NCBI RefSeq assembly: GCF_002854065.1
Contig: NZ_CP024147.1
Source of the DNA: Escherichia coli
GTDB taxonomy: Bacteria > Pseudomonadota > Gammaproteobacteria > Enterobacterales > Enterobacteriaceae
Direction: 5' to 3' (one strand)
Length of the DNA stretch: 64,000 nucleotides
The position numbers and the translations under genes were made by a program. Of this stretch, positions 7,967-31,140 are shown piece after piece. The notes under the pieces were generated by a model that saw only the letters and a program-made list of their open reading frames with translations, was not told where the DNA came from and made no database searches. Positions within the stretch are counted from its first letter, which is position 1. The number at the start of each line of letters is the position of its first letter.

Positions 7967-8065
7967 GCCTGATGCGCTACGCTTATCAGGCCTACATGGT
8001 CCTGCAATATATTGAATTGGCAAGATTTTTGTAGGCCGGATAAGGCGTTCACGCCGCATCCGGCA
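7967..8065 (+). repeat. REP/BIME elements in the entD-fepA spacer
   Basis: gcctgatgcgctacgcttatcaggcctac and gtaggccggataaggcgttcacgccgcatccggca are canonical E. coli REP palindromes. Confidence 0.75.
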
Positions 8066-22360: not shown

Positions 22361-22458
22361 AAATCAGCTTCCTGTTATTAATGAAGTTAATGCTTCTCAT
22401 TTTCATTGTAACCACAACCAAATGCAACCCCGAGTTGCAGATTGCGTTACCTCAAGAG

Positions 22459-27557: not shown

Positions 27558-29663
27558 ATGAACAAATCAGGGAAATACCTCGTCTGGACAGTGCTCTCTG
27601 TAATGGGAGCATTTGCTCTGGGATACATTGCTTTAAATCGTGGGGAACAGATCAACGCGCTGTGGATTGTGGTGGCGTCGGTCTGTATCTATCTGATCGC
27701 TTACCGTTTTTATGGGCTGTATATCGCCAAAAATGTGCTGGCGGTTGACCCGACGCGTATGACGCCAGCGGTGCGCCATAACGACGGGCTGGACTATGTG
27801 CCGACGGACAAGAAAGTGCTGTTCGGTCACCATTTTGCGGCCATTGCCGGAGCAGGTCCGTTGGTTGGGCCGGTACTGGCGGCGCAAATGGGTTACCTGC
27901 CGGGGATGATCTGGCTACTCGCCGGGGTGGTTCTCGCCGGTGCAGTGCAGGATTTCATGGTGCTGTTTGTTTCTACGCGTCGTGACGGTCGCTCGCTGGG
28001 TGAGCTGGTCAAAGAAGAGATGGGGCCAACCGCCGGGGTGATAGCGCTGGTGGCCTGCTTTATGATCATGGTCATTATCCTTGCAGTACTGGCGATGATC
28101 GTGGTGAAAGCCCTGACTCATAGCCCGTGGGGAACGTATACCGTTGCGTTCACCATTCCGCTGGCGATTTTTATGGGAATCTACCTGCGCTATCTGCGTC
28201 CGGGGCGTATTGGTGAAGTGTCGGTCATCGGTCTGGTATTCCTGATTTTTGCCATTATCTCTGGCGGCTGGGTGGCAGAAAGTCCGACCTGGGCACCGTA
28301 CTTTGACTTTACCGGCGTGCAGCTAACCTGGATGCTGGTGGGTTACGGTTTTGTGGCGGCGGTGCTGCCGGTGTGGTTGCTGCTGGCTCCGCGTGACTAC
28401 CTCTCTACCTTCCTGAAAATCGGGACGATCGTCGGTCTGGCGGTAGGCATTTTGATTATGCGCCCGACGCTGACCATGCCTGCACTAACTAAATTTGTTG
28501 ATGGTACTGGCCCGGTATGGACCGGTAACCTGTTCCCGTTCCTGTTTATCACCATCGCCTGTGGCGCGGTGTCTGGCTTCCATGCGCTGATCTCTTCCGG
28601 CACCACGCCGAAGATGCTGGCGAACGAAGGGCAGGCGTGCTTTATCGGCTACGGTGGAATGTTAATGGAATCCTTCGTGGCGATTATGGCACTGGTTTCC
28701 GCCTGTATCATCGATCCGGGCGTGTACTTCGCCATGAACAGCCCGATGGCGGTGCTGGCTCCGGCAGGGACGGCTGATGTGGTCGCTTCTGCCGCGCAAG
28801 TGGTGAGTAGCTGGGGCTTTGCGATTACTCCGGATACGCTCAACCAGATTGCCAGCGAAGTGGGGGAACAGTCGATCATTTCCCGTGCGGGCGGTGCGCC
28901 GACGTTGGCGGTGGGGATGGCTTACATCCTGCACGGTGCGCTGGGTGGTATGATGGATGTGGCGTTCTGGTATCACTTCGCCATTCTGTTTGAAGCTCTG
29001 TTTATTCTGACGGCGGTGGATGCAGGTACGCGTGCTGCGCGCTTTATGTTGCAGGATCTGCTGGGCGTGGTTTCTCCGGGCCTGAAACGGACCGATTCAC
29101 TGCCTGCTAACCTGCTGGCAACGGCGCTGTGCGTGCTGGCGTGGGGCTACTTCCTGCATCAGGGTGTGGTCGATCCGCTGGGCGGTATTAACACTCTGTG
29201 GCCGCTGTTTGGTATTGCCAACCAGATGCTGGCAGGGATGGCGCTGATGCTCTGTGCCGTGGTGCTGTTCAAGATGAAACGTCAACGTTACGCCTGGGTG
29301 GCGCTGGTACCAACGGCCTGGCTGCTGATTTGTACCCTGACCGCTGGCTGGCAGAAAGCGTTTAGCCCGGATGCGAAAGTCGGCTTCCTGGCCATTGCTA
29401 ACAAGTTCCAGGCAATGATCGACAGCGGCAATATTCCGTCGCAGTATACTGAGTCACAGCTGGCGCAACTGGTGTTCAACAACCGTCTGGATGCCGGGTT
29501 AACCATCTTCTTTATGGTGGTCGTGGTGGTTCTGGCACTGTTCTCGATTAAGACGGCACTTGCGGCATTGAAAGATCCGAAGCCAACGGCGAAAGAAACG
29601 CCGTATGAGCCGATGCCGGAAAATGTTGAGGAGATCGTAGCGCAGGCGAAAGGCGCGCACTAA
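27558..29663 (+). CDS. cstA: Carbon starvation protein A CstA (peptide/pyruvate transporter family)
   Basis: 701-aa polytopic membrane ORF matching recalled CstA. Confidence 0.9.
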   Translation: MNKSGKYLVWTVLSVMGAFALGYIALNRGEQINALWIVVASVCIYLIAYRFYGLYIAKNVLAVDPTRMTPAVRHNDGLDYVPTDKKVLFGHHFAAIAGAGPLVGPVLAAQMGYLPGMIWLLAGVVLAGAVQDFMVLFVSTRRDGRSLGELVKEEMGPTAGVIALVACFMIMVIILAVLAMIVVKALTHSPWGTYTVAFTIPLAIFMGIYLRYLRPGRIGEVSVIGLVFLIFAIISGGWVAESPTWAPYFDFTGVQLTWMLVGYGFVAAVLPVWLLLAPRDYLSTFLKIGTIVGLAVGILIMRPTLTMPALTKFVDGTGPVWTGNLFPFLFITIACGAVSGFHALISSGTTPKMLANEGQACFIGYGGMLMESFVAIMALVSACIIDPGVYFAMNSPMAVLAPAGTADVVASAAQVVSSWGFAITPDTLNQIASEVGEQSIISRAGGAPTLAVGMAYILHGALGGMMDVAFWYHFAILFEALFILTAVDAGTRAARFMLQDLLGVVSPGLKRTDSLPANLLATALCVLAWGYFLHQGVVDPLGGINTLWPLFGIANQMLAGMALMLCAVVLFKMKRQRYAWVALVPTAWLLICTLTAGWQKAFSPDAKVGFLAIANKFQAMIDSGNIPSQYTESQLAQLVFNNRLDAGLTIFFMVVVVVLALFSIKTALAALKDPKPTAKETPYEPMPENVEEIVAQAKGAH

Positions 29664-29667
29664 AGTC

Positions 29668-29752
29668 AGAGTGAGGGGGGATGTTGGCGAATGTTGGCAT
29701 AGTGCCGAGGGTTCCCCCTCACCCTAACCCTCTCCCCGATGGGGCGAGGGGA
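29668..29752 (+). repeat. BoxC-like GC-rich imperfect palindromic intergenic repeat
   Basis: gtgaggggggatg ... ccccctcaccctaaccctctccccgatggggcgagggg resembles the E. coli BoxC repeat family; assignment from memory. Confidence 0.45.
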
Positions 29753-29777
29753 CTGACCGAGCGCGTTGATAGCATTT

Positions 29778-29812
29778 GTAGGCCGGATAAAGCGTTCACG
29801 CCGCATCCGGCA
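29778..29812 (+). repeat. REP element
   Basis: gtaggccggataaagcgttcacgccgcatccggca is a canonical REP palindrome. Confidence 0.75.
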
Positions 29813-29844
29813 CTCTTTCAGCAACATGGTTAGCGGAGGCCAAG

Positions 29845-30042
29845 ATGTTTGATTCACTGGCAAAAGCCGGAAAATATTTAGGTCAGGCGGCGAAGCTGAT
29901 GATTGGTATGCCTGATTACGACAACTATGTCGAACATATGCGGGTTAACCATCCCGATCAAACGCCGATGACCTACGAAGAGTTTTTCCGTGAGCGGCAG
30001 GACGCGCGCTACGGTGGAAAAGGCGGCGCGCGCTGCTGCTAA
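29845..30042 (+). CDS. ybdD: Small protein YbdD (DUF466), partner of CstA
   Basis: 65-aa [36 protein letters not shown]... matching recalled YbdD. Confidence 0.85.
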
Positions 30043-30051
30043 ATTTGCACG

Positions 30052-31140
30052 TCAGGCTTTAAACGATTCCACTTTTTCGAACGCTGCACGCAACGTATCT
30101 GGTGTCAGCGTGACCGGCAGGTAATGAATGGATTCCACCGGACGTAAGGTGTGGGCAATCACTTTGTCGATCTCCGCCTGATTATTGATATCCACTTCCA
30201 GCTCCGCCAGCGTAGTCGGCAGATGAAAACGCTGATACGCTCCAGTTAATTGCGCCAGAACATCATCCTGACCCAGCAAGGCGCTTTGCACCAGAATTCC
30301 GTAGGCGACTTTGGTGCCGTGAAGAAACTTCTCGGTTTGCGGCAGCACGGTCAGACCGTTATGCACGGCATGAGCCGCCGCCACACGCGTAAAACGATCG
30401 CCCAGACCACCGACCATCCCACCACCAGCAATAATAGCATCCACCACATCGCAAAATGATTGCGTTAACTGTTGATTTTGCTGATCGCTCAGCGCCTGTT
30501 CGCTACTGTTTAACAAGACGTCGCGAATGGCCTGCGCATTATTGATTCCCAGCCGCACGGTTAGCGGCAACGTTTCTGGTTGCGGAGCCAGCACCACCGC
30601 TTCATACCATTTCGCCAGCGTATCACCGATCCCCGCCAGCAGATATTGTTGCGGCGCATTGAGGATAATCTCCGGTTCCACCAGCACCATAAAATTGGCG
30701 TCGTCGAAAATCTCATAATGCAGCGCCTGTCCGGCATCGTTATACCAGACGGAGAGCGGTGTCCAGGCGGCGCAGGTGGCGGCGATCGTCGGAGCGGCAA
30801 CAAATGGCAGATCGAGACGGCGGGCGAGGGCTTTCGCGGTGTCGAGCAGTGCGCCGCCGCCGACGCCAATCACCACGCTGCGATCGTCACCGGACTCAGC
30901 CGCCAGTTGCTGTACATCGCTTTCGCTGCAATGACCACGAAACAAAATATGCTTTGCCCCTGGAAGTCCAAACGCTGGCGGAAGTTTGGTTTGCGCCGCA
31001 GCAATGGCGCGTTTGCCGTAGATCCACACCGCGCGAGAAAGTTGTTCATCAGTGAAAAAATCGTGCAGGTGATTGAAACTTCCTGGATGTGAAAAGTAGT
31101 TAGCCGGGCCGACGACCACGCGGATAGGATTGTGAGGCAT
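30052..31140 (-). CDS. ybdH: Iron-containing alcohol/hydroxycarboxylate dehydrogenase family protein YbdH
   Basis: 362-aa ORF matching recalled YbdH. Confidence 0.85.
   Translation of the reverse strand: MPHNPIRVVVGPANYFSHPGSFNHLHDFFTDEQLSRAVWIYGKRAIAAAQTKLPPAFGLPGAKHILFRGHCSESDVQQLAAESGDDRSVVIGVGGGALLDTAKALARRLDLPFVAAPTIAATCAAWTPLSVWYNDAGQALHYEIFDDANFMVLVEPEIILNAPQQYLLAGIGDTLAKWYEAVVLAPQPETLPLTVRLGINNAQAIRDVLLNSSEQALSDQQNQQLTQSFCDVVDAIIAGGGMVGGLGDRFTRVAAAHAVHNGLTVLPQTEKFLHGTKVAYGILVQSALLGQDDVLAQLTGAYQRFHLPTTLAELEVDINNQAEIDKVIAHTLRPVESIHYLPVTLTPDTLRAAFEKVESFKA

Follow-up and report, generated by a model that had tools for sequence, protein, structure and literature searches.

Two unrelated families of short repeats are the closest described parallels to the DNA between cstA and ybdD of Escherichia coli. 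The REP element, or palindromic unit, was reportedly described by Stern et al. and by Gilson et al. in 1984; REP hairpins can protect upstream mRNA, and the work of Newbury et al. from 1987 is said to be the basis for treating REP as an exonuclease barrier. The second family is said to have been covered further by Bachellier et al. in 1999 (as BoxC) and by Hoyne et al. in 2000 (as PIT elements). BoxC takes its name from Bergler et al. 1992, who described it next to envM (now fabI), and was later termed PIT and then TMECO, the three names denoting the same motif (Holder et al., PMC4666352). Near-identical sequences form a triplex (PMC4666352) or a G-quadruplex (PMC5100583) in vitro, but neither was supported in vivo.

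The window analysed here is a stretch of 64,000 nucleotides from E. coli. From the letters alone, its segment 29664-29844 had been read as the cstA-ybdD spacer, occupied by a BoxC-like palindrome and a canonical REP. The position was exact, the 181 bp being precisely the interval from the stop codon of cstA to the start codon of ybdD. Both genes, cstA (27558-29663, plus strand, 701 aa) and ybdD (29845-30042, plus strand, 65 aa, YbdD/YjiX family, ATG at 29845), were taken from the ORF list and from the RefSeq annotation of identical or near-identical loci; the TAA stop of cstA (29661-29663) lies one base away from the repeat composite. CstA is a pyruvate/proton symporter. CstA and YbdD are functional partners: constitutive pyruvate uptake depends on both genes (PMC5847655). 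An identical spacer (100%) is found in E. coli strain Res13-Sevr-PER07-33, and thousands of further genomes match it at 97-99% identity; the K-12 RefSeq record has no repeat features annotated at this spacer. The observation is correct, and the spacer is an ordinary, already known feature.

Identity and anatomy of the two repeats

The quoted 38-nt GC-rich palindrome (ccccctcaccctaaccctctccccgatggggcgagggg) was located at 29714-29751, where it shows inverted symmetry with arms at 29715-29724 and 29742-29751 that are 90% complementary. Searching the window with the published TMECO pattern, 5'-CCCTCNCCC N3-6 GGGNGAGGG N3 GGGNGAGGG-3' (Holder et al. 2015, PMC4666352), gave a single exact match in 64 kb, at 29716-29750 on the minus strand, and none in 100 shuffles. 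This core reads CCCTCGCCC-CATCG-GGGAGAGGG-TTA-GGGTGAGGG, and the minus-strand reading of the whole palindrome, from 29751 down to 29714, is CCCCTCGCCCC-ATC-GGGGAGAGGG-TTA-GGGTGAGGGGG. The match has the form CCCTCNCCC-N5-GGGNGAGGG-TTA-GGGNGAGGG, which makes it a type A element carrying one mismatch in the stem; this is the commonest TMECO type in K-12 (PMC4666352). The 21-mer GGGAGAGGGTTAGGGTGAGGG, the core of HPG1 (Kaplan et al. 2016, PMC5100583), is likewise present exactly, at 29716-29736 on the minus strand. Judged by sequence, the palindrome is therefore a BoxC element (PIT/TMECO/HPG1), a feature already catalogued.

Matching against E. coli repeat families aligned the core, flanks and linker with other BoxC copies. 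The window copy is near-identical to K-12 copies and aligns through flank, core and linker at fabI-ycjD and five other loci; its difference from the K-12 fabI-ycjD copy (TMECO no. 9) is confined to the first loop. Related places for the 102-nt BoxC part number 16 per E. coli genome at the median and up to 30, and 16 in the genome identical to the window. With the exact TMECO pattern, the exact HPG1 core and the K-12 alignment, the label BoxC-like was thus too cautious, and the element is a full member of the family. A degenerate second BoxC-like unit, CCCTCTCCCTGAAAGAGCGAGGGGGCAGACCGAGC, was seen to overlap the 3' end of ycjD, upstream of the fabI copy (K-12, locus L004, 3880-3920).

The K-12 orthologue is listed by Kaplan et al. 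2016 (Table 1, PMC5100583) as HPGQ 19 (cstA >>> 51 | 632058 | - | 108 >>> ybdD), that is, with its midpoint at 632058, on the minus strand, 51 nt from cstA and 108 nt from ybdD. In K-12 a single base is changed in the third G block, GGGTGAGAG instead of GGGTGAGGG (K-12 spacer, locus L001, 3000-3182), while the window allele is intact. Because this change fails the strict TMECO pattern, the K-12 copy is missing from the 23 K-12 TMECOs of Holder et al. (Table 1), and the same point change explains its presence in the G-quadruplex table of Kaplan et al. but not in Holder's list.

To define the element beyond its core, the minus strand was aligned with complete K-12 inverted pairs (ygfF-gcvP, alx-sstT, fepB-entC and hrpB-mrcB). 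Colinear parts comprised the flank GCTCGGTCAGTC, with weaker similarity for about 15 bases more, to roughly 29775; the type-A core; GAAC plus a linker (..GGCACT..GC.AACAT); and the start of the inverted partner, CCCTCAC. Beyond CCCTCAC the similarity ends: the copies at cstA-ybdD continue with TCTGAC-TTTA, which is complementary to the cstA stop. Colinearity followed by this divergence shows that the locus consists of a complete type-A unit and, at 29665-29680, a remnant of the partner that measures 16 nt. On the plus strand, the remnant consists of GTCAG and AGTGAGGGGGG, corresponding to the outer flank of the partner and the end of its third G block. The linker between the two units (29681-29713) is homologous to that of complete K-12 pairs, and the type-A flank on the minus strand, which reads GACTGACCGAGCGCGTTGATAGC on the plus strand and was aligned with six K-12 type-A units, spans 29752-29775, its end at about 29775 being approximate. 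The locus thus shares with the BoxC family an intergenic location, the flank GCTCGGTCAGTC, the linker and the tail-to-tail pair plan of K-12 ygfF-gcvP, alx-sstT and fepB-entC, but differs from complete pairs in that the partner unit has shrunk to 16 nt beside the cstA stop.

The remnant is complementary to 29714-29728 (inverted repeat of 15 nt, 87%) and supplies the 5' arm of a long hairpin. In the predicted RNA fold, GUCAG at 29665-29669 pairs with CUGAC at 29753-29757 and would close a three-way junction, which encloses the remnant/third-block hairpin and the CCCUCUCCCC/GGGGCGAGGG hairpin. Within the linker, ATGTTGGC occurs at 29681-29688 and again at 29691-29698 as part of a 10-bp tandem repeat (29681-29700, units ATGTTGGCGA and ATGTTGGCAT) that acts like a small variable-number repeat: strains 104 and CFSAN018748 have a single copy, the window and K-12 have two, and strain 24AR0376 has three.

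Downstream of BoxC, abutting its flank, the expected REP was found as a single Y-type element (palindromic unit) at 29778-29811 on the minus strand (GCCGGATGCGGCGTGAACGCTTTATCCGGCCTAC), with 33 of 34 consensus bases. The Y-type consensus, GCCGGATGCGGCGTGAACGCCTTATCCGGCCTAC (about 35 nt), was checked against the perfect copy in the window: over 34 nt it matches 29778-29811 with one mismatch and 8031-8064, also on the minus strand, with none, and it has no match in 100 shuffles. These two copies are 97% identical over 38 nt. The palindrome arms lie at 29782-29795 and 29798-29811 and form a hairpin of -16.1 kcal/mol (z = -2.6), the conserved end being GTAG at 29779-29782 on the plus strand. Like described Y-type REPs, the element has the GTAG/CTAC end, an imperfect hairpin, an extragenic site and many copies per genome, the REP part alone matching further chromosomal places; it differs from the consensus and from the K-12 allele by one stem base, A for G at 29792. 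The spacer holds one REP without a second unit in opposite orientation, and so it is not a BIME.

A permissive E-value search of 29000-30500 against Rfam returned sub-threshold matches only, among them mir-423, antizyme and others by chance. One of these, to RF02564 (naRNA4), covers 29781-29822 with 32.2 bits (E = 0.0017) and raises the idea that the REP region yields a nucleoid-associated small RNA of that kind. The gathering threshold is 59.5, far above this score, and 42 nt are matched against a model of 77 positions. Since naRNA4 is an RNA derived from a REP cluster, similarity of this order is expected from any REP, and such a product is very improbable here.

Turnover of the repeats within E. 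coli

Alleles were counted by targeted searches of 5,426 complete E. coli genomes, and eight of them were aligned. BoxC core and REP occur together, as in the window and K-12, in 3,693 genomes with spacers of 181, 182 or 172 bp. The core without REP is found in 401 genomes, where spacers of 142, 153 or 154 bp show a clean 29-bp absence. A 127-bp spacer with REP and no core was assigned to approximately 136-290 genomes (136 by subtraction, 290 at a coverage of at least 80%), a count that stays approximate because similarity in REP and flank lets other alleles match partially. Neither element is present in the 112-bp spacer of ST131 and relatives, which accounts for 1,189 genomes (22%). At least seven length alleles exist in E. 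coli, separated by indels of 10, 11 and 29 bp, the last being that of the REP-less alleles, and every allele examined retains at least one strong hairpin.

The BoxC flank persists in ST131-type alleles without the core. Since the 112-bp allele keeps both the remnant/third-block hairpin and this flank (CCGAGCGTGTTGATAGC), it looks like an internal deletion of the core, which matches the 'palindromic effect' described by Holder et al. (PMC4666352). Just 5' of the ybdD ribosome-binding site, the same allele has a hairpin of terminator-like form with a T-rich tail (GCCCTCTTAATTCAGGAGGGC, then ATTTGTATT). This hairpin (locus L011, 370-390) resembles that of Citrobacter and Salmonella and is homologous to about 29776-29830 of the window, where only a decayed version stands beside REP. 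The 3' part of the window spacer (29812-29844, plus strand) is unique sequence and holds the Shine-Dalgarno GGAGG of ybdD at 29835-29839; within it, GCACTCT..AGCAAC resembles a degenerate version of the ancestral hairpin, which ST131-type alleles keep intact, the homology being read off the allele alignments. Replacement of the ancestral hairpin by BoxC through conversion in Escherichia was also considered and was ruled out, as both the BoxC remnant and, next to it, the ancestral-type hairpin are present in the ST131-type allele.

Two open reading frames run mechanically through the spacer, one of 65 aa on the minus strand (29666-29863) and one of 50 aa on the plus strand (29681-29833). The sequence-only reading had called the minus-strand frame spurious and ascribed it to the repeats; that frame does exist as an ORF, and RefSeq annotates nothing inside the spacer, but the frame that has been deposited, as 'hypothetical protein' in a few GenBank records, is the 50-aa one on the plus strand. 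The existence of both frames and this deposition are what could be cited for a small protein encoded here. Both frames are broken by the indels, whose lengths (10, 11 and 29 bp) are not divisible by three, whole segments are absent in 22% of genomes, the exact 65-aa sequence is absent from a collection of 15 billion proteins, and the frames consist of repeat sequence present at many other loci, so that a coding role is extremely improbable.

A comparable polymorphism was observed elsewhere in the window. At 22387/22388, the fepB-entC spacer is an empty site for the 186-bp palindromic BoxC inverted pair of K-12 (TMECO nos. 7 and 8), a segment with TAA on both sides in K-12; the filled allele occurs in 2,755 of the 5,426 E. 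coli genomes, the remainder showing the same clean absence.

The variability of the cstA-ybdD spacer can be read in terms of DNA structure, in that the G-rich minus strand of BoxC may adopt an intrastrand triplex or a G-quadruplex while the DNA is replicated or transcribed and thereby cause pausing, local instability and possibly an effect on transcription. The triplex was seen in vitro by CD and NMR, and TMECO loci were more rearranged than control sites (PMC4666352); a G-quadruplex/hairpin switch was likewise found in vitro (PMC5100583). The spacer is hypervariable, with slippage of the 10-bp repeat, internal core deletion and a REP indel, and the presence/absence of the neighbouring fepB-entC pair as a clean 186-bp segment fits the same picture. 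Yet DMS footprinting in vivo gave no support for a stable triplex, addition of the complementary strand produced duplex, polymerases were found to be unaffected in vivo (PMC4666352), and the variability may be mere repeat turnover. A role at the DNA level is possible but doubtful.

The spacer in other species

One genome per species with YbdD was surveyed, giving 80 loci, 77 of them with both cstA and ybdD (L015-L094). The spacer measures at least 47 nt in 74 of the 77 species, with 47-63 nt in most genera, and only 14-20 nt, without a hairpin, in the other three. As read from the listed sequences, a GC-rich hairpin is present in nearly all species whose spacer exceeds about 45 nt. Its source differs: a CCCTCTCC/GGAGAGGG hairpin, equal to the first two BoxC blocks, occurs in 16 species (Citrobacter, Salmonella arizonae, Kosakonia), REP in 12 and BoxC in 12, most of the rest having other hairpins; in Kosakonia sacchari the hairpin is terminator-like and has a T-rich tail.

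The BoxC units, one or two full copies in these 12 species of several genera, all lie in this spacer and nowhere else in the 2.6-kb loci. These 12 species lie outside Escherichia. Besides Escherichia itself, full units occupy the spacer in the Enterobacter/Lelliottia/Leclercia group, in Pseudocitrobacter, in Phytobacter ursingii and in Cedecea davisae, with close relatives of each lacking them; of two Pluralibacter genomes, one has a BoxC unit in the spacer and the other does not. Within Escherichia, the core is absent in E. albertii, E. whittamii, Escherichia sp. MOD1-EC7003 and the GTDB E. coli representative, all of which have the remnant hairpin and REP. In the 12 species with BoxC units, the Enterobacter group included, pairs are arranged head-to-head, in contrast to tail-to-tail in Escherichia. 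Two records of unexpected origin, L019 and L045, turned up in the survey: a 465-bp contig of 0.7x coverage in the 'Streptomyces sp. DH24' assembly encodes a 98% identical YbdD, and a contig binned as 'Bacillota bacterium' has a cstA-ybdD locus of Enterobacter type that includes REP and BoxC. Contamination and mis-binning are the probable explanations.

The recurrence across genera suggests, tentatively and with rather low probability, that BoxC units preferentially enter the cstA-ybdD spacer, by landing or by conversion. Taken with the polymorphism at fepB-entC, a clean one of 186 bp, it would mean that BoxC is or was mobile with a target preference. BoxC resembles MITE-like repeats (ERIC/IRU, RSA) in being short, palindromic, intergenic, dispersed and presence-polymorphic, and the fepB-entC pair acts as a clean insertion/deletion flanked by TAA. 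Unlike them, BoxC is not known to have transposase-related terminal repeats or established target-site duplications, and its mobility is putative.

The near-universal hairpin allows another reading, in which the structured spacer is a selected device: its hairpin would limit read-through or make mRNA stability differ between the genes, thereby fixing the CstA:YbdD ratio, and would at present be supplied by BoxC and REP. That nearly all of the spacers of at least 47 nt contain such a hairpin, that all E. coli alleles examined keep a strong one, that the ST131-type allele and Kosakonia sacchari have terminator-like versions with T-rich tails, and that CstA and YbdD act together, so that stoichiometry could matter, are all consistent with it. 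However, kind, number and position of the hairpins vary across species, the three shortest spacers do without one, the window allele has no terminator-like site, PIT/BoxC lacked terminator activity in the tests of Hoyne & Maher 2002 as related in PMC4666352, and many genes are commonly followed by GC-rich hairpins and repeats, which makes their presence here weak evidence. A selected device of this kind is accordingly judged unlikely.

Function and significance

An effect of the repeats on the cstA:ybdD expression ratio, as proposed in the sequence-only reading, is possible. Co-transcription of cstA and ybdD is favoured by the very short spacers of some species and is taken here as the likely arrangement, whereas RegulonDB, in the form quoted with the table of Kaplan et al. 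(PMC5100583), gives them as separate one-gene operons. A search of the literature on cstA-ybdD returned no transcript-level data, and PMC5847655 makes no statement on co-transcription. Consensus scans of 29400-30150 gave neither a sigma-70-like promoter nor a terminator-like site, and no hairpin of the window allele has a T run directly after it.

Folded as RNA, the whole spacer reaches -78 kcal/mol (z = -2.95 versus shuffles). A co-transcribed plus-strand RNA would contain three stable stem-loops, formed by the remnant and third block, the BoxC hairpin and REP, none of them with a U tract behind it, for which reason a passive effect of RNA structure would be likelier than termination. The hairpins, and REP above all, would hinder 3'-to-5' exonucleases as barriers and could lend modest stability to the cstA segment upstream, with ybdD translated from its own exposed Shine-Dalgarno; for REP, this barrier role is assumed here from its general behaviour. 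At the DNA level, the G-rich strand of BoxC can adopt non-B structures in vitro, and local instability of the kind reported for such sites is seen at this locus. The elements resemble intrinsic terminators and attenuators in being GC-rich stem-loops between two co-oriented genes, but no T run follows any hairpin of the window allele, in contrast to the ST131-type allele, Kosakonia sacchari and some other genera, where a hairpin at this place does precede a T-rich tail. According to Hoyne & Maher 2002, as summarised in PMC4666352, BoxC/PIT showed no promoter or terminator activity when assayed and no polymerase effect in vivo.

Because the elements are gained, lost and internally deleted between strains, they are better described as dispensable passengers than as a conserved regulatory device, and since both are missing from 22% of E. 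coli genomes, whatever influence they might have on the cstA:ybdD ratio would be strain-specific and not required. We therefore consider it quite likely that BoxC and REP are dispensable genomic passengers here, with a passive effect on RNA structure at most. The presence of some GC-rich hairpin in almost all species whose spacer is longer than about 45 nt speaks against this passenger reading and could mean that the hairpin itself is selected, in which case the elements would be more than passengers.

As a discovery the spacer carries little weight, REP having been known since 1984, BoxC since 1992 and the K-12 orthologue from a 2016 catalogue; what goes slightly beyond the literature consulted is limited to the series of alleles and to the repeated occurrence of BoxC at this site in different genera. 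The practical value is for annotation, in which the spacer is best marked as repeat sequence, its ORFs are to be disregarded and length differences between strains are to be interpreted as repeat turnover. The four allele classes amount to a natural experiment on whether repeats alter the expression of two cooperating genes. The recurrence of BoxC in this spacer across genera bears on how the family spreads, and a site preference, if true, would be the first clue to it.
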